Shown: positions 3,909-60,401 of the stretch, piece by piece | Numbering within the stretch: position 1 is the stretch's first letter | How the letters are laid out: every line of letters begins with the position of its first letter | Assembly: GCA_963765765.1 (NCBI GenBank) | Contig: CAVXYC010000015.1 | Span: 160,001-224,000, forward strand | Direction of reading: 5' to 3' | Source of the DNA: an uncultured Chloroflexia bacterium | GTDB lineage: Bacteria; Chloroflexota; UBA6077; JACCZL01 | DNA length: 64,000 bases | Made by a program: the position numbers and the translations under genes | Notes under the pieces: model-generated | Told to the model about the DNA's origin: nothing | The model's input: the letters and a program-made list of their open reading frames with translations, nothing else | Database searches by the model: none

Positions 3909-4121
3909 TAGCTGGACTGCGGGTCGCGTGCACGCAGTTTCAACCCGAATCGGATTAAAGGCACGCTGTTGCTCACGTGGTATGCTCCTGTCACCCCCGC
4001 GGACGCTGACATGCTCTGAGCCATTCAATCAGCGCTGGATACCGCGTGCGGCGCACCACGGCCTCCCAGCCGTCTTGTGGACGGGATGCTCACCTGACAG
4101 AATGGATAGAGCATGTGCGCA

Positions 4122-4769
4122 ATGACACACTCGAACCCAAACGATACGGAGCCTATTCATTTCGCGGGTGGGGTGCTCGACAAGTATCGGCACGTGTGTG
4201 CGTTCTTTCCGGCGCCTGACGATGAGCACCGCGTGCTTGACCCGTACGTCCGCGAGGGACTCCATCGTGGCGAGAAAGCATTTCACATCGTAGATCCCGC
4301 TTTGCGCGATGACTACGTGCGCCGTCTCGCTGCAGCCGATATCGACATCGTCGACGGTATGTCGCGTGGTCAGTTCGAGCTGTGCACCTGGGACGAGGCG
4401 TACCTTCGCAATGGGCATTTCGACCAGGATTCCATGCTTGCCCTTATTCAGGAGGTATTGGACGGCGGGCGGCAAGCGGGATACCCTCTCACCCGCCTCG
4501 TGGCACACATGGAGTGGGCCCTCGAGGACCGTCCCGGAGTGGACGATCTCGTGGAATACGAAACGCGCCTTAACTATGTCTTACCGCGCTATCGGGACCC
4601 GGTCATATGACTGTATGAGACCGCCAAGTTTGGCGGCGGCATCGTGATGGACATCTTGCGCACGCACCCAATGGCAATCATGGGTGGGGTGTTGCGCGAG
4701 AATCCGTTCTTCGTTCCTCCGGATGAGTTTCTCCAGGAACTTCGCGAACGCGCGCGCGACCGTGCATGA
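4122..4769 (+). CDS. MEDS-domain sensor protein with in-frame TGA (4608-4610), candidate selenoprotein
   Basis: RHVCAFF...GLHRGEKAFHIVD...RLVAHMEWAL...EYETRLNYVLPRYRDPVI-TGA-LYETAKFGGGIVMDILRTHP...ENPFFVPPDEFL. The MEDS C-terminus continues in the same frame to the stop at 4767-4769. Confidence 0.85.
4615..4642 (+). promoter_or_regulatory. Candidate bacterial SECIS of the MEDS gene
   Basis: CCGCCA-AGTT-TGGCGG (4621-4636), loop starting 16 nt after the TGA with G at loop position 2; possible lower stem ATG(4615-17)/CAT(4640-42). Confidence 0.6.
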
Positions 4770-4799
4770 GCCGCCCGAGGACGGAACTTAGGCTGTAGC

Positions 4800-6503
4800 G
4801 TGTCGGAGCGAGAGGTATCACGGGCGGCGGAAGGGGATCCGGCGCGCGAGTTGGCGGCGCTGCTCGCATTACCGGCGACGTGGAAAGGATGCGAGCCGGC
4901 TGCCATCGCGACCAGCATGCTCGACGCACTTGTGAGCCTTCTGCGCCTCGACATCGCTTACCTCGATCTCGATGACGGCCGCGTCGAGCGTGCGTGGCCA
5001 CCGGCCACGAGGTTCCCGCCGAAACTGGCTGACGTGGTGCGGGCGCGAATCGAGGATGGCGATATCGCTCCGATCCTAACCACGCCAGATCCGGCTCGTG
5101 ACGGAGCATTTCGGGTCGCCGGCCTCGCTCTCAAGCCGATGGGCCACGCTGGGCTCATCGCGGTTGGTTCCCGGCGTCCCAGCTTCCCAAGTCCGTTCGA
5201 GTCGTTCTTGCTGAGCATGGCGGCGGAGCAGGCACTCATCGCAATCGACACGGCGTTGCTGATCGCGCGAGAACAACGGCGCGCCCGACAACTGCGCGCA
5301 CTCACGGAGGCCGCAGCAGACATTAACGCCGCTGTGAGCACCACGGAGGCGCTGCAGCGCATCACGGACCGGGCTCGGGACATTATTGGTGCACACCAGG
5401 CGATGACGAGCCTTTCAGTGGACCAGGCAGCCGCGCCAGAAATCACCGCCATCTCCTTCTCGAGCAAGTACGAGCGCCACCGAAGCACCACGGTAGACCG
5501 CAGCCGATCGGGCTTAAGCGCACTCGTCTGTCACGAAAATCGGCCATATCGGCTGACACACGAGGAGCTCCTGAGCCACCCGGCCTGGCGCGGCGGTGAT
5601 CACGGAGATCAAGAACGCCCGCCGCTGCGCGGCTGGCTGGCCGCTCCGCTGATCGGGCGGGATGGGGAAAACCTGGGGCTGATAGAGCTCTCGGATCGCA
5701 ACCGCGGCGACTTCACGGAGAACGATGAAGCGATCCTAGTGCAGCTCGCGCACCTGGCGTCGGTGGCAATTCAGAATACTCACCTCTACGAACAAGCGCG
5801 TCGGGCTCTAAGCCTTCGCGACGAGTTCCTGGCGCAGGCGGCTCACGAGCTGAAGTCGCCCCTGACAGCCCTGAAGGGATACGTTCAGCTCTCTGCACGC
5901 CGCGGAGGGGCGGACCCGTTCAGTGCTCGCATGGTGACCCAGGTGAACCGCCTCGATCGTCTCGTTGGTGACCTTATCAGCGTGGTTCGGCTGGAGACTG
6001 GACAGCTCGAACTGGTTCGTCAAGAGACAGACCTCATCACCGTTGCGGAGTCCTGCATCGGTGCGGCTCAAGCCCTATCCGTGCGTCACGTTATCAGTTT
6101 GGAGTGCGCCCCAGCCTCGCTGGTTGGGAGGTGGGACCCGGATCGTCTGACCCAAGTGTTTGAGAACTTGCTCGCAAACGCGGTTAAGTACTCGCCGGGT
6201 GGAGGTGAGATCCGTGTCCAAATTCGAATGGTGGGGGCGGAGGTCCGCGTTTCGGTGCACGACGCTGGAGCGGGGATCGCAGCAGATGTGCTCCCCCGAT
6301 TGTTCGAGCGATTCTACCGGGCCCCAAGTGTCGCGCGTGAGGTCGACGGGCTCGGACTCGGACTGACGATCACGCGATCGATCATAGAAGGGCACGGGGG
6401 CCGGATTTGGGCGGAGAGCGCGGGCGAGCAGCGGGGCAGCACGTTCGCCTTCACGTTACCGCTAAATCGACTCCACACGCGGACAGGCGAGTACAGCGGC
6501 TGA
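4800..6503 (+). CDS. GAF-domain sensor histidine kinase
   Basis: GAF (GWLAAPLIGRDGENLGLIELSD), H-box AAHELKSPL, N-box ENLLANAVKYS, G1 DAGAGI, F-box LFERFYR, G2 GLGLGL. Confidence 0.95.
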   Translation: MSEREVSRAAEGDPARELAALLALPATWKGCEPAAIATSMLDALVSLLRLDIAYLDLDDGRVERAWPPATRFPPKLADVVRARIEDGDIAPILTTPDPARDGAFRVAGLALKPMGHAGLIAVGSRRPSFPSPFESFLLSMAAEQALIAIDTALLIAREQRRARQLRALTEAAADINAAVSTTEALQRITDRARDIIGAHQAMTSLSVDQAAAPEITAISFSSKYERHRSTTVDRSRSGLSALVCHENRPYRLTHEELLSHPAWRGGDHGDQERPPLRGWLAAPLIGRDGENLGLIELSDRNRGDFTENDEAILVQLAHLASVAIQNTHLYEQARRALSLRDEFLAQAAHELKSPLTALKGYVQLSARRGGADPFSARMVTQVNRLDRLVGDLISVVRLETGQLELVRQETDLITVAESCIGAAQALSVRHVISLECAPASLVGRWDPDRLTQVFENLLANAVKYSPGGGEIRVQIRMVGAEVRVSVHDAGAGIAADVLPRLFERFYRAPSVAREVDGLGLGLTITRSIIEGHGGRIWAESAGEQRGSTFAFTLPLNRLHTRTGEYSG

Positions 6504-6758
6504 TGTAGACCTTCCGGCTCGCCATCAGCCACGGCGACAAGTCATCTCGTACGCGGGCAGAGGCAGTTTATCCAGAGCAGACCCGAACTCGGGCCGATCA
6601 GTGAGTCACCCGTTGCGGCGCCCGTGCCCTCAAGCACGGCGTGGTGCTCACGAGAGCCTGCGACGGAACAATCGCAGATCCGATGCGCCGCCCATTGCGT
6701 CGTGGCCCGGAAGGTGCATCGTGAGTGTAGCGAGCGGCTCGCCCGCGATCGGATCATC

Positions 6759-7142
6759 ATGCTCTGCAACCATTCCGTACTCCTCGTCGACGATCATGCC
6801 GATATACGAGACATCCTGAATTTCGTGCTTGCGGACGAGGGCTACAACGTTCTAAGTGCAAAGAATGGCGTTGAGGCCCTTGAAATGGTTCGAGACGACA
6901 CCTTCGCCGTCATCTTGATCGATGTCCAGATGCCGGTCATGGACGGCGTGGAATTCATTCGCAGATACCGGGCACTGCCGGGCCACAAGGCACAACTCAT
7001 CATCATGACTGCGGGCCAGAACGCGAAGATGTACGCCGAACTAGTCGGCGCTGATGCCTATCTCGCGAAGCCGTTTGAGCTCGACGATGTGCCCGAGATC
7101 GTGGGCAAGCTTGCTGGCAGAGTGTCGACGGACAGATGTTAG
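6759..7142 (+). CDS. Single-domain response regulator (receiver)
   Basis: VLLVDD...ILIDVQMPVMDGVEF...IIMTA...YLAKPF. Confidence 0.93.
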   Translation: MLCNHSVLLVDDHADIRDILNFVLADEGYNVLSAKNGVEALEMVRDDTFAVILIDVQMPVMDGVEFIRRYRALPGHKAQLIIMTAGQNAKMYAELVGADAYLAKPFELDDVPEIVGKLAGRVSTDRC

Positions 7143-8061: not shown

Positions 8062-8148
8062 TGGTGCCGGGGACGGGATTCGAACCCGTACGCCCTCGCA
8101 GGCAGCGGAGTTGAAGTCCGCCGAGTCTGCCGTTTCACCACCCTGAGC
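8062..8148 (-). tRNA. Class II tRNA with Leu-type body and UCA anticodon (possible opal suppressor or pseudo-tRNA)
   Basis: GCTCAGGG TG GTGAAACGGCAGACTC G GCGGA-CTTCAAC-TCCGC T GCCT-GCGA-GGGC GT ACGGG-TTCGAAT-CCCGT CCCCGGC A CCA. Perfect anticodon and T stems, A73, encoded CCA; acceptor and D stems are imperfect. Confidence 0.8.
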
Positions 8149-57248: not shown

Positions 57249-60200
57249 TCACCTCAACCGACCCTTCCTTACGTTGCAGGTAAACGCCTTGCCCTCATGG
57301 ATCGATGTGTTTGGGTCGCCCACCAGAGCGGTGAGATCGTTCACAATGTCGCCCGTAGCGTAGCCCTCCCAGCCAAAGTGCCAGGGCAGACCAATCTGGA
57401 AGATCTGGCGTCCGTCTATCGTGAGCTGCCTGAGGCGATCGGTCACCAGCGCGCGTGTTTCGATCTCACCTCGCGCTGTGGAGACAACCACCCAATCCAG
57501 CGAGGCGAGCCCGAGCTGACTGGCCAGCTCAGACGGGATCTCGGCAAATCCTTCCGGCTGAAGCTCCGCCGTCGATGGAACGAATCGCGTGGGAATTCCG
57601 CCGGAATGATGCTCGGTGAGGCGGTGCGTGGTGATGACATATGGATACGCTGGATCTCCGACGGCATGGTACCGATTGTCTTCTCGCTCCCAGCGCTTGG
57701 CTGCCGGGTTGTCCTGTTGCTCATAGAGCGGATTCTTTACGGGAGATTCGACCGGCTCATAGTGGCTGGGTAAGGGACCATCGCGCAGCCCTGACGGGAC
57801 GAAGAGCGCGGCCTTGCCGTCAGCGTTCATCATGAACGGCGATTTGCCATCGTGCGCGTCAACTCCGCCTGGTGCATCTGATGACCAGTCAGGGACAAAC
57901 GACGGCGCCTTGTCGGCTGGACAGTCGGGGATGTCATTCCCGCCCCAGCGCCCGGATTCTTCATCCCACCAGAGATAGCGCTTGCGCTCCGACCAAGGCT
58001 TTCCTTCTGGATCCGCGGATGCGCGGTTGTAGAGCACACGCCGATTGCTGGGCCAGGCATAGCCCCAATTCAGATGGCTTCCGGAGCCTTCTGGACCATC
58101 TGCCACACGCGACCGAGCCCGGTTTTCGTCTGAGCTGGGGTGCACTCCGGCGTAGATCCAGACGCCGCACGCGGTGCAGCCGTCATCCTTTAGCTCGCGC
58201 GGGTCGGTGATTTGTTCGCCCGTGGCCACGGTGAATCCATTTATCTCCCGAAGCACGGCTTCCGCAGATGGTTCCTGGTGCGGACCTTCGGTGGGATAGT
58301 CCCAGGTCAAGTTCTGAATGGGTTCATCGCGCGGATCGGCGCTGCCAGAGTAAAGCTCTTTCAGCCGCACGCCCAGGTGGTGAAAGAACCACAGGTCGGA
58401 TCGCGTATCGCCCGGCGGCTCCACAACCTTATCGTGCCATTGAATGAGCCGATGGGTATTGGTGAACGTGCCCTCCTTCTCGCCAGGCAGCGCAGCCGGA
58501 AGCAGGAAGATCTCAGTCTGGATGCTGCTCGCATCCAGCTCACCGTTCTCCACTTCGGGCGAGCTGAGCCAGAAGTTGGCTGTCTCGTTCTCGAATGTCT
58601 CGCGAACCACCATCCACTCGAGATTTCCAAGCGACTTCCGAATCAGGCGGGTATTGTGCCCACCTACGGCCGGGTTCTGGCCGATGAGCAGGAGCCCCTT
58701 AATGAGTCCATCGGCAATAGCCATCATCATCACGGACTGTGAATGATCGCCCATGATTTTCGGAATCCAGGAATACCCCCAGCTGTTCTGCGCCGTGGCT
58801 CGCTCGCCGTACCACGCTTTGAGGAGGCTGACGATGTACTTGGGGAAGTTGGACCACCAGCCGGTCGGCGCTGTTTCGGCACTTACATAGTCCTGAAATG
58901 ACTGGTGAGGCCGGTATGAGGCTGGTTGCGGCAGATACCCAGGCAGCAGGTTGTAGAGCGTTGGAACGTCCGTGCTGCCCTGAATACTGGTGTGGCCGCG
59001 GAGAGCGAGGATTCCACCGCCGGGGCGACCAATGTTTCCCAGCAGCGTCTGAATGATGGCCGCGGCCCGGATTGTCTGGACTCCTGTCGTGTGATGCGTC
59101 CAGCCAACGGCGTAGCACCACGCTCCGGTACGTTCGCGGCCGGAGTTTCGGGTCACTTCGTCGGCAATCTTCAAGAACGTTTCGCGCGGGCAACCTGTGA
59201 TGCGCTCCACCATCTCAGGCGTATAGCGCGCATAGTGCCGCCGCAGGATCTGGTACACGCAACGCGGATCCTGGAGCGTCGGATCGGTTGGCGGGGGGCC
59301 GTGACCGGCCTTTTCACGCGCGAGATGGCTTTCCACCTCAGGATGATGTTCTCCCTGATCTGACGGCGTCTGATGCCCGTATTGCCACGAATCCGACTGA
59401 TAAGCGTGACCTTTATCGTCCCAGCCGGAGAAAAGCCCCTCGAGGTCTTCAGGATCCTGGTAGCGCTCGTCGATGATATGCGCGATGTTGGTGTAATTGA
59501 GTACATACTCTTTGAACCAGAGATCGTGCTCCAAGATGTGCCGAATGAGACCACCCAGAAAGGCGATGTCCGAGCCTGCCCGAACCGGCGCATAGATGTC
59601 CGCCATCGCTGACGTGCGCGTGAAGCGCGGATCAACGTGGATGATCGTCGCGCCACGCTCCTTCGCCTCTAGCACGAAGCGAAAGGCAATGGGATGGTTC
59701 TCGGCCATGTTGGAGCCCATGATCACGACACAATCGGAGCTCGCCAGGTCCCACTGAGCAGTTGTCGCGGCGCCGCGCCCGAATGTGGCGCCCAGACTGG
59801 GCACCGATGAGCTGTGTCATATGCGCGCCTGATTCTCGATCCAGACCATCCCCAGGCCGGCGCCGCACAGTTTCTTGATCAGATAGTTCTCTTCGTTGTC
59901 CAGTGTGGCGCCGCCGAGCTCCGCGATCCCCAGCGTGTGGTTGACAACTGTTCCATCCGGCAGTTTCTCAACGAATGTCTCGTCGCGCGTTTGCTTCACG
60001 AGCTGGGCGATACGCTCCATGGACCATTCGAGCGACTTCTCTTCCCAGTGATCCGAGTACGGGGCTCGGTACTTCACCATGGTTAAGCGATTGGGATTGG
60101 AGAGCCAGCCGAACGTGGCCGCGCCCTTAGGGCAGAGCGTGCCCTGATTGATGGGGCTGCGCGGGTCGCCCTCGATGTGGATGATGTCATTGCCGCGAGC

Positions 60201-60401
60201 GTAGATGAGCTGGGCGCAGCCCACGGCACAGTACGGGCAGATGCTGGTCCCGACTCGATCGGCATCTTCGAGACGTGGGCGCGTGTCGCGGGAGGCCGCG
60301 GATTCAGCGGCTTTTCGAGATGAGTCCTGCCCTTGTAACTGACGCGGAACGGACCAATCTGATAGCGTCTGCTGAAGCCGCGTCCAGACGTTACTGGCCA
60401 A
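57249..60401 (-). CDS. Selenocysteine formate dehydrogenase alpha subunit (Mo/W-bisPGD), Sec TGA at 59817-59819
   Basis: CPYCAVGC, LCPKG, ENQARI-TGA-HSSSVPSL continuing in frame into 57249..59804; ALRGH; C-terminal RLTEHH. Confidence 0.96.
59787..59805 (-). promoter_or_regulatory. SECIS element of fdh alpha
   Basis: GGTGCCCA-GTC-TGGGCGCC hairpin starting after an 11-nt spacer downstream of the TGA. Confidence 0.85.

Follow-up and report, generated by a model that had tools for sequence, protein, structure and literature searches.

The locus raises the question of whether the TGA at positions 4608–4610 of the window (the whole stretch of DNA analysed, 64,000 nucleotides) ends a truncated MEDS protein or is translated as selenocysteine (Sec), and what a Sec residue might do in a sensory protein. 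Comparisons with related loci made the TGA very probably a selenocysteine codon. The whole proposal, a MEDS protein with Sec at residue 166, decoding by means of a hairpin, signalling to a kinase and a redox or covalent input at the selenol, is considered highly probable. The coordinates are collected in Table 1.

Table 1. Features of the MEDS locus and of selenocysteine use within the window.
Feature	Position	Strand	Details
MEDS gene, full-length, probable selenoprotein	4113–4769	+	218 codons plus stop; Sec at codon 166
In-frame TGA, very probably read as selenocysteine	4608–4610	+	most conserved Cys column of the family; strand beta5 of the model
SECIS-type hairpin CCGCCA-AGUU-UGGCGG	4621–4636	+	within codons T-A-K-F-G-G
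Cytoplasmic histidine kinase	4800–6503	+	GAF-like N-domain ~16–170, GAF 180–325, HisKA 340–401, HATPase_c 446–556
Receiver-only response regulator	6624–7142	+	REC at residues 52–159 of the longest ORF
tRNA-Sec (selC, anticodon UCA)	8062–8147	-	ARAGORN tRNA-SeC; Rfam tRNA 33 bits
Sec-type formate dehydrogenase (FDH) of the host	57249–60401	-	

The in-frame TGA and its conservation

The MEDS reading frame, when begun from the ATG at 4113, meets its first stop at TGA 4608–4610, and beyond it stays open for 52 codons (LYETAKFGGGIVMDILRTHP...NPFFVPPDEFL...) until TGA 4767–4769, which is followed by 30 nt before the kinase start. All these elements were present as the preliminary description had given them, and also its product of 215 amino acids with Sec at residue 163 is correct when counted from the alternative start, ATG 4122 (218 amino acids and residue 166 from ATG 4113). 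The Pfam MEDS model (PF14417) matched residues 26–186, across the TGA, as a whole domain (profile positions 1–161 of 161; E 3e-38) and above its threshold (131.6 bits, gathering threshold 29.8). The NCBI and ENA records end the product at 4610, as a truncated protein of 165 aa. Both the MEDS gene and the kinase gene terminate in TGA, which is thus an ordinary stop in the host.

The TGA was also looked for in contigs derived from reads, where bridging was judged by a 31-nt rule. An independent contig of 386 nt from a soil-metagenome run (X3; 4305–4690) spans the TGA unchanged. The contig of run X2 ended 6 nt beyond the TGA, and that of X14, the sole RNA-library contig (4602–4802) and possibly DNA carry-over, started 6 nt ahead of it, so that neither bridged the codon by this rule. 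In run X1, the best by shared words, a single 126-nt piece with less than 90% likeness was aligned, and this was silent on the TGA.

Among the 80 best related loci of species genomes, 76 have TGA at the column of this codon and the other four TGC; of 80 metagenome loci, 79 have TGA. The TGA-form loci represent several phyla at 59–75% protein identity; among 60 relatives of the same class, two had TGA orthologues (73 and 67% identity). When 150 diverse MEDS representatives were aligned, Cys was found in 135 of the 136 rows ungapped at this column, in agreement with the earlier claim that the TGA stands at a conserved Cys, and full-length Cys forms are known at 60–71% identity. The tree interleaved Sec and Cys forms within the MEDS subfamily and required approximately 16 switches between them, at least three of which were forced by well-supported branches. 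Across 147 unique genes, the conserved residues +14 to +47 past the TGA vary synonymously, and the frame beyond the TGA is therefore taken to be translated. It is also the read-through stop, and not the TGA, to which the next gene is tied, with a start at -29 to +31 nt from this stop in 75 of 82 loci. The context of the UGA, AUA-UGA-A/C, is biased, with ATA at -1 in 101 of 136 sequences and A or C as the next nucleotide in all 136.

The hairpin (CCGCCA 4621–4626, loop AGTT 4627–4630, TGGCGG 4631–4636) was found as described earlier, its loop beginning 16 nt past the TGA. It has the form of a bacterial SECIS element, in which a stem-loop follows the UGA at a short distance, with 16–37 nt as the limits of the bSECIS model, and a conserved G stands early in the apical loop. 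The folding energy of the window hairpin was -10.5 kcal/mol against -5.35 ± 2.16 in shuffles, 24 of 1000 shuffles being equally low, and Rfam at gathering scores matched the tRNA and no other element, the hairpin included. The hairpin of the window taken alone is moderately unusual, and it is the comparison among relatives that lends it significance.

In this comparison, the 12-mer GCCAAGTTTGGC was present in 76 of 77 TGA forms and in none of six Cys forms; the exception, L108, has another hairpin with a GUU loop at an equal distance from the TGA. Codons +5 to +8 (GCC AAG TTT GGC) had an entropy of 0–0.06 bit, against at least 0.43 bit in all 100 other conserved columns, and they were frozen at their synonymous sites in TGA forms only. 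The preliminary description had warned that the codons of A-K-F-G would give the hairpin in Cys homologues too. This did not hold: the apical stem was part of the minimum-energy fold in 102 of 103 Sec-form stretches against 0 of 7 distinct Cys-form stretches. A search of 401 Pseudomonadota for further Cys-form DNA, made with a degenerate pattern, recovered the centre genome and no other, so that seven stretches make up the Cys-form control for the hairpin. The hairpin includes one covarying pair, the flanking pair 13–28, which was paired in 92 of 104 sequences, as U-G, G-C or C-G, a level reached by none of 2000 shuffles.

The host encodes all of selA (555 bits), selB (312 bits, 337 with neighbours), selC and a Sec-type selD (382 bits, with one TGA), which bears out the earlier statement that the organism uses selenocysteine. 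Sec-trait genes (selA or Sec-type selD) were found in all 72 TGA-bearing genomes tested; selA was above the cut-off in 69 of these, and in the remaining three selD contains an in-frame TGA. Two of the three Cys-only genomes (G106, G112) were without selA, selB and selD, and the expected restriction of the TGA forms to Sec-trait genomes was thus observed. Within the window, ARAGORN found a single tRNA with a UCA anticodon, typed as tRNA-Sec. A linkage of selC to the MEDS module was rejected, because ARAGORN found no tRNA-Sec in 82 other MEDS loci; neither was any other sel gene linked in them.

The MEDS module and its probable partner kinase

The best PDB matches of the AlphaFold2 model of the MEDS protein (pLDDT 89.4) in Foldseek were FlaH, KaiC and PH0284 (E 4e-6 to 1e-3, TM 0.5–0.6), and according to the model the protein is a stand-alone, inactivated KaiC/RecA-like MEDS module. 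MEDS is also listed as an inactivated KaiC-like domain by Galperin et al. 2018 (PMC5847659). The model has the alpha/beta fold of the KaiC/FlaH/RecA-superfamily ATPases, to which the protein is 9–15% identical, and at the place of their P-loop there is H-V-C-A-F-F-x-x-x-D-[DE]-E, as placed by the sequence and the secondary structure of the model rather than by residue-level superposition. Searched by sequence with the family profile, the PDB yielded a best match of only E 0.27. The most conserved columns include His27 (120/124), Cys29 (109/125, Ala or Gly in 13 of the 125 representatives), Cys166 (135/136) and His185 (133/134).

The Cys-type stand-alone MEDS proteins of the same subfamily (e.g. 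P0003, P0019, P0045; named MEDS domain-containing protein or DcmR-like sensory protein) are 60–71% identical over their full length and share the conserved residues. They differ in having Cys in place of Sec and an AKFG stretch that can vary, with Gly174 kept in only 26 of 134 rows, and none of their seven DNA stretches has the hairpin. The RsbA-type anti-sigma regulators of actinobacteria (NF041045) gave a weak match of their N-terminal MEDS-like domain (45.1 bits; residues 25–213 against profile 1–175). Membership in the RsbA family was rejected, as the cut-off is 210 bits and the protein is without the kinase-like anti-sigma C-terminal half. No dedicated model matched Sec-MEDS in the NCBIfam search.

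The N-terminal domain of the window kinase showed weak GAF matches, and a domain homologous to its first 180 residues was present in 74 of 77 other downstream ORFs. All ten downstream ORFs sampled were histidine kinases, and four of the five Cys-form loci from species genomes (L076, L080, L089, L107) likewise precede a kinase that shares this N-terminal domain. Both parts of a two-component system are thus present in the window, HisKA and HATPase_c being found in the kinase and a receiver domain in the regulator. Since REC starts only at residue 52 of the longest ORF, the true start of the regulator may be an ATG near 6759. Receiver-like sequence matching the regulator occurred in 20 of 82 other loci; in some of them it lay directly 3' of the kinase, and in others it was fused to the kinase or located elsewhere. 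Of the coupling proposed earlier, the partnership with the kinase was supported by the conserved tight gene order, but the regulator is kept only in a minority of loci. The gene order suggests that the MEDS protein is coupled to the kinase encoded directly downstream.

A comparable pair has been described from ethylene-oxidising mycobacteria, in which EtnR2 consists of MEDS only and is thought to signal to the GAF-containing EtnR1 (PMC11197473). At the level of the published description, the likeness is that also here a MEDS-only protein precedes a partner with a GAF-like N-domain, in this case the kinase. The signals given for EtnR2/EtnR1 and for Methylobacterium DcmR, epoxyethane and dichloromethane, are small electrophiles, and the sensing of small hydrocarbon derivatives by MEDS is a prediction of the same sources (PMC11197473, PMC11507031). 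In the EtnR and DcmR systems, as described there, the partner is a DNA-binding activator, whereas here it is a histidine kinase; unlike those systems, the module here is without flanking catabolic genes.

Proposed mechanism and alternative readings

According to the proposed mechanism, the hairpin CCGCCA-AGUU-UGGCGG would recruit SelB and Sec-tRNASec, and the UGA would be read as Sec and not as a stop. The selenol would then replace the near-invariant Cys of the MEDS subfamily on strand beta5, which by the usual 5-1-4-3-2 order would adjoin the strand of His27-x-Cys29. At the input, the selenol might be oxidised to a selenenic acid, form a selenenylsulfide with Cys29 or be alkylated by a small electrophile, the Sec chemistry presumably being faster and more reversible than that of the Cys forms; the sensed chemistry would thus be that of an oxidant or an electrophile at the selenol. 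A bond between Cys29 and Sec166 cannot be the only mechanism of the family, because Cys29 is not universal in the Cys forms. As output, the MEDS protein would modulate the autophosphorylation of the kinase and the transfer to the receiver-only regulator, as the conserved coupled gene order suggests.

The first part of this mechanism has two competing readings. That the TGA is a true stop, caused by a nonsense mutation, pseudogene formation or an assembly error, with the 52 downstream codons as a decaying remnant, has a negligible probability: the public gene calls do end the protein at 165 aa, and from one window a fresh nonsense mutation could not be told from recoding, but the TGA is kept in nearly all the best related loci of several phyla and occurs in independent contigs, purifying selection with synonymous change is evident in the codons beyond it, and it is to the second stop that the following gene is tied. 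A read-through of the UGA without selenium, by a near-cognate Trp or Cys tRNA or a suppressor tRNA and with the hairpin slowing termination, is very improbable. The biased AUA-UGA-A/C context could as such affect the efficiency of termination; against this reading, the TGA forms occur in Sec-trait genomes only and two Cys-only genomes are without those genes, the codon stands for Cys in the classical Sec/Cys pattern, the position and GU-containing loop of the hairpin are those of SelB-type elements with an apex resembling the FDH element of the host, and the only tRNA of the window with a UCA anticodon is tRNA-Sec. Judged from the sequences, the UGA is a Sec-type recoding site.

Granting Sec166, its role allows two further readings. 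It could be a ligand, together with His27, Cys29 and His185, for a metal ion or cofactor that binds the signal molecule, instead of a redox or alkylation switch. Sec is a metal ligand in FDH or [NiFeSe] hydrogenase, a set of two His and two Cys is typical of metal sites, and the four residues are among the most conserved columns; as the sequence searches of Pfam, NCBIfam and the PDB found no metal-binding family, and Cys29 is in part replaced by Ala or Gly, this reading is regarded as rather unlikely. The UGA might also gauge the supply of selenium, low selenium leading to a stop at codon 166, loss of the sensor and a changed output of the kinase. The efficiency of Sec decoding depends on selenium supply, and selC is located approximately 0.9 kb downstream of the regulator in the window; the lack of linked sel genes in the other loci makes this reading quite improbable, as do the free interchanges of Sec and Cys forms on the tree, which fit a chemical benefit better than a role as a selenium gauge.

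The most far-reaching form of the preferred selenol reading is that the Sec-MEDS proteins are reactive-selenol chemosensors, in which an event at the selenol would be passed through the GAF-like docking domain to the kinase, and the first bacterial selenoproteins for signal perception and not catalysis; this is put forward as a tentative possibility. If true, the mechanism throughout MEDS (DcmR, EtnR2, RsbA-type, archaeal kinases) would be covalent chemistry at one Cys or Sec. Since 2005 MEDS has been regarded as a predicted sensor of small molecules, and to our knowledge no mechanism has been described for it. The position of Sec may indicate the residue that does the sensing, and as the Sec substitution is a natural label of a chemically active residue, it points to Cys166 as the one for testing.

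Sec-MEDS among the known selenoproteins

Bacterial genes with a SECIS within the ORF are decoded by SelA, SelB, SelC and SelD, the archetype being E. coli fdhF, and they share with the MEDS gene an in-frame UGA at a Cys column, a 3' hairpin and GU in the apical loop. The FDH and MEDS genes of the host both have the context ATA-TGA-C and an apex closed by CCA/UGG (CCA-GUC-UGG and CCA-AGUU-UGG, respectively). Redox enzymes, carriers and transporters make up the overwhelming majority of catalogued bacterial selenoproteins; the MEDS protein differs in that it serves a two-component pathway as a small sensory module and is not a redox enzyme. Sec in a dedicated two-component sensory module widens the known uses of selenium.

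The novelty suggested earlier was upheld in the sources consulted: PF14417 is absent from the 119 selenoprotein families in Table 1 of a May 2026 review (PMC13188914). Literature searches for MEDS, DcmR or PF14417 with selenocysteine or selenoprotein, and for selenoproteins in two-component systems or Acidobacteria, found nothing relevant. Nor did the words MEDS, sensor or histidine kinase appear in the main texts of BSepDB (PMC13326102) and deep-Sep (PMC12013277). According to the review, the groundwater study of Deng et al. 2026 contains candidate selenoprotein families that are unvalidated (PMC13188914).

The Sec-MEDS proteins of soil bacteria form a widespread and apparently uncatalogued family of signalling proteins that very probably contain selenium. 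Public gene calls cut these proteins at 165 aa, the host genome included; as the SECIS forces an invariant A-K-F-G peptide, this provides a simple signature for finding and correcting the truncated calls. Judged from record titles, Sec-MEDS occurs in at least nine phyla, mostly in soil Acidobacteriota. The distribution is sparse: of 150 other Acidobacteriota species sampled evenly, two had a TGA orthologue, one of them the unpublished genome G559. The same sample included one match with an internal TAG, in G605.

The MEDS gene and its in-frame TGA

The TGA at 4608–4610, within the MEDS (PF14417) gene of the window, was shown by comparison of homologous genes to bear every comparative mark of selenocysteine (Sec) recoding, and it is very probably decoded as Sec. 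The open reading frame, the TGA, the 52-codon extension and the hairpin beyond it proved correct in all details in the preliminary description. The read-through product comprises 218 aa, and the Pfam MEDS profile spans the TGA, covering positions 1–161 of 161 with 131.6 bits. The public protein record of the gene is a 165-aa truncation. TGA also serves as an ordinary stop in the host, ending both the MEDS and the kinase genes.

Features of the MEDS module and of the Sec-related genes in the window
Feature	Position	Strand	Remarks
MEDS ORF	ATG 4113 (or 4122) to TGA 4608–4610		co-oriented with kinase and regulator
MEDS read-through	52 further codons to TGA 4767–4769		second stop 30 nt ahead of kinase start
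Hairpin CCGCCA-AGTT-TGGCGG	4621–4636		loop starts 16 nt past the TGA
Histidine kinase	4800–6503		GAF, HisKA and HATPase_c domains
Receiver-only regulator	6624–7142		third co-oriented gene
tRNA-Sec, anticodon UCA	8062–8147	minus	typed by ARAGORN as tRNA-SeC
Sec-type formate dehydrogenase alpha subunit	57249–60401	minus	listed as two ORFs, 194 and 851 aa

The formate dehydrogenase of the host has its in-frame TGA at 59817–59819 (minus strand; protein context R-I-U-H-S-S), and downstream of this UGA lies an 8-bp hairpin, GGUGCCCA-GUC-UGGGCGCC. Its Sec codon shares the ATA-TGA-C context with the MEDS gene, and the apex of its hairpin resembles that of the MEDS hairpin, being closed by CCA/UGG and containing GU.

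Distribution of the TGA and its exchange with cysteine

When the whole genomes of 60 same-class relatives were searched, two other families of the order proved to have orthologues with a single in-frame TGA at this column (73 and 67% identity); Cys paralogues turned up as well, and the host has one. The GTDB set, scanned with one genome per species, gave 266 relatives, and JGI metagenome contigs gave 561. The codon at the Sec166 column was TGA in 76 and TGC in four of the best 80 of the 266 genome loci, and TGA in 79 and TGC in one of the best 80 of the 561 metagenome loci. A regular expression caught 74 of the genome TGA loci; the two that it missed, L056 and L060, likewise have TGA.

According to the record titles, the TGA forms are mostly from Acidobacteriota, the other titles being Chloroflexota, Rokuibacteriota, Methylomirabilota, Binatota, Myxococcota, Gemmatimonadota, Planctomycetota and one betaproteobacterial MAG, of which single MAGs may be misbinned. 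The nearest relatives of the window gene are titled Chloroflexota. A TGA orthologue was present in two of 150 evenly sampled other Acidobacteriota species, one of these being the unpublished genome G559. The Sec-MEDS family is taxonomically wide but sparse. Another MEDS match in the Acidobacteriota sample, 53% identical, has a TAG inside a 574-aa open frame (G605:C6:106506–107129).

The stretch recurs in contigs from other public soil runs. A 386-nt contig from another soil run, X3, corresponds to 4305–4690 and spans the TGA unchanged, with four differing letters elsewhere, and no TGC or TGT variant of the codon was seen in the contigs from other public soil runs. A metatranscriptome contig (run X14) covers 4602–4802 with one differing letter; it begins just 6 nt before the TGA and could be DNA carry-over.

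Full-length Cys forms are numerous in the protein database (60–71% identity). In a set of 150 proteins, each standing for one 50%-identity cluster, the Sec166 column was Cys in 135 of the 136 ungapped rows, which bears out the earlier alignment of the TGA with a conserved Cys. Also His185 (133/134) and Glu150 (145/149) are, like this column, among the most conserved positions, and in the same set 109 of 125 rows retain Cys29 and 120 of 124 retain His27. The FastTree tree was built from 76 Sec and 117 Cys forms, 193 rows in all, after exclusion of rows without full coverage from codon −140 to +48 and of nine of the 120 database proteins, which failed the length or motif filter. It requires 16 Sec/Cys changes, compared with a mean of 60 when the labels are shuffled, and well-supported branches make at least three of the changes unavoidable. 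Replacement between the Sec and Cys forms has thus happened repeatedly in both directions, as in established selenoprotein families.

Both forms were in some cases found together. The metagenome contig with TGC, L191, carries tandem MEDS genes, the TGA copy at 368 and the TGC copy at 1086, and in genome G102, where L094 is of the Sec and L076 of the Cys type, a kinase and a receiver come after both copies. In the 600 nt after the Cys-type paralogue of the host (locus L016, G000:C27:9054–12644; 47% identity) there is no long ORF in the same orientation, in contrast to the host's Sec copy.

Probable recoding signals and Sec machinery

Synonymous sites were analyzed in 147 unique TGA-form genes, using the 104 columns in which at least 90% of the rows have the same degenerate amino acid. 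The conserved columns past the TGA (R+17, T+18, H+19, P+20, N+31, P+32 ... R+47) were free to vary synonymously, which is the signature of protein-level selection and not of downstream decay. The next long ORF begins −29 to +31 nt from the read-through stop in 75 of 82 loci.

The codons GCC AAG TTT GGC had entropies of 0, 0, 0.06 and 0.06 bit in these genes, compared with at least 0.43 bit in each of the other 100 conserved columns. The Phe of AKFG is encoded by TTT in a ratio of 146:1, while other Phe columns prefer TTC. The 12-mer GCCAAGTTTGGC was found in 76 of the 77 genome TGA forms and in all 79 metagenome TGA rows, but in none of the six Cys forms; the two Cys forms retaining the A-K-F-G peptide differ synonymously (GCC AAA TTT GGG and GCC AAG TTC GGC). 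The peptide is invariant in the Sec forms, and Gly174 is kept in just 26 of 134 Cys-form representatives. The minimum-energy fold contained the apical stem for 102 of 103 unique Sec stretches but for none of seven Cys stretches. Together with the other hairpin data, this speaks against the earlier caveat that the AKFG codons form part of the hairpin in Cys homologues as well. Covariation of the stem reaches into the flanking codons at pair 13–28, which is paired in 92 of 104 unique stretches (U-G 60, G-C 21, C-G 11), with a mean of 63 in shuffled data and none of 2000 shuffles attaining 92. At the next pair outward covariation was not significant in these stretches.

The sole TGA form without the 12-mer, locus L108 of a Gemmataceae MAG (797–840), reads GCC CGG TTC GGT and folds a hairpin of another kind, which has a bulged U and a GUU loop and lies about as far from the TGA. 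It looks like an independent SECIS solution.

Also the immediate context of the codon is biased. The preceding codon was ATA in 101 of 136 unique contexts (4605–4613 and the same place in loci L034–L193), a codon that elsewhere in these genes accounts for only 1 to 8 of 140–146 rows per Ile column. The base following the UGA was A in 127 contexts and C in nine, never G or T.

Use of Sec by the host, proposed earlier, is corroborated by the tRNA-Sec in the window together with selA, selB and selD elsewhere in the genome. The selB and selA genes adjoin on contig 14, and selD (locus L010, G000:C21:108202–112119) has an in-frame TGA of its own (G-A-G-U-A-C-K) and is itself a selenoprotein gene, as it is also in genomes G093, G105 and G117. 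The tRNA-Sec gene lies some 0.9 kb beyond the response regulator; this proximity looks coincidental, since no tRNA-Sec was detected in the flanks of 82 other MEDS loci. The best 80 of the 266 genome loci fall in 75 genomes, 72 with a TGA form and three with Cys forms only. The selA gene was above the cut-off in 69 of the 72 TGA-bearing genomes, and in the other three selD contains a single in-frame TGA, G117 having selB as well. With selA or a TGA-bearing selD in 72 of 72, every TGA allele found was in a genome with Sec-trait genes. Two of the Cys-only genomes, G106 and G112, which are titled Methylococcaceae, had no selA, no selB above the cut-off and no selD; the third, G129, has selA.

Among the papers that could be searched, none pairs MEDS, DcmR or PF14417 with selenocysteine or selenoprotein. 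The prokaryotic selenoproteome was reviewed in May 2026 (PMC13188914), and the 119 families of Table 1 there include neither MEDS nor PF14417; MEDS is also unmentioned in the main texts of BSepDB (PMC13326102) and deep-Sep (PMC12013277). NCBIfam release 20 contained no matching selenoprotein model, the single match being a sub-threshold RsbA. Judged from the comparative data, the window MEDS gene is a real, conserved and mis-annotated selenoprotein gene of a family missing from the catalogues consulted.

Protein fold, likely kinase partner and predicted function

The AlphaFold2 model, based on 31 aligned rows, was confident (pLDDT 89.4, pTM 0.86), with five core strands at 27–32, 55–60, 88–92, 127–132 and 164–169. 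Its best PDB matches were FlaH, KaiC and the RecA-superfamily ATPase PH0284 (TM 0.5–0.6), which fits the listing of MEDS in the literature among inactivated KaiC-like domains (PMC5847659). Sec166 is in the fifth modelled strand and His27-Val-Cys29 in the first. In folds of this type the usual strand order is 5-1-4-3-2, making strands 1 and 5 neighbours, and by this topology Sec166 may lie beside His27-Val-Cys29.

All ten sampled downstream ORFs were cytoplasmic histidine kinases with diverse PAS/GAF arrays, their initial ~170–380 residues without Pfam match. Of the 77 other downstream ORFs with 190 aa or more, 74 have a domain homologous to residues 1–180 of the window kinase, among them the ORFs that follow four of the five Cys-form loci of the genome set. 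This domain is weakly GAF-like, GAF_2 matching 14 of 31 rows (best E 1.4e-4) but not the window row. What is conserved is thus the pair of a MEDS-only protein and a kinase bearing a dedicated GAF-like domain at its N terminus, and a functional partnership of the two is predicted as likely. Of the coupling first described, the kinase part is supported, whereas a receiver, either following the kinase or fused to it, occurs in a minority of loci only. The N-terminal domain is uncatalogued and about 160 aa long (4800–5339 in the window; downstream ORFs of loci L034–L113), with the motifs D-L...L-P-A-x-W-x-G, L-R-L-D and F-P...N-Q-A.

In the mechanism envisaged, SelB would bind the hairpin 3' of the UGA, and the MEDS protein would dock on the N-terminal domain of the kinase, tuning its activity. 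The signal would be a covalent event at the selenol, which might be oxidised, be bonded to Cys29 as a selenenylsulfide or react with an alkylating electrophile. Such redox or electrophile sensing is a tentative prediction, rather less likely to hold than to fail, and a serious alternative is that His27, Cys29, Sec166 and His185 act as metal ligands. That the UGA would instead serve as a gauge of selenium is unlikely, because selC is unlinked in the 82 other loci and the Sec and Cys forms interchange freely.

The arrangement of a MEDS-only protein with a GAF-like kinase echoes that of ethylene-oxidising mycobacteria, in which EtnR2 is MEDS-only, EtnR1 has a GAF and a DNA-binding domain, and the response is to epoxide (PMC11197473, PMC11507031).
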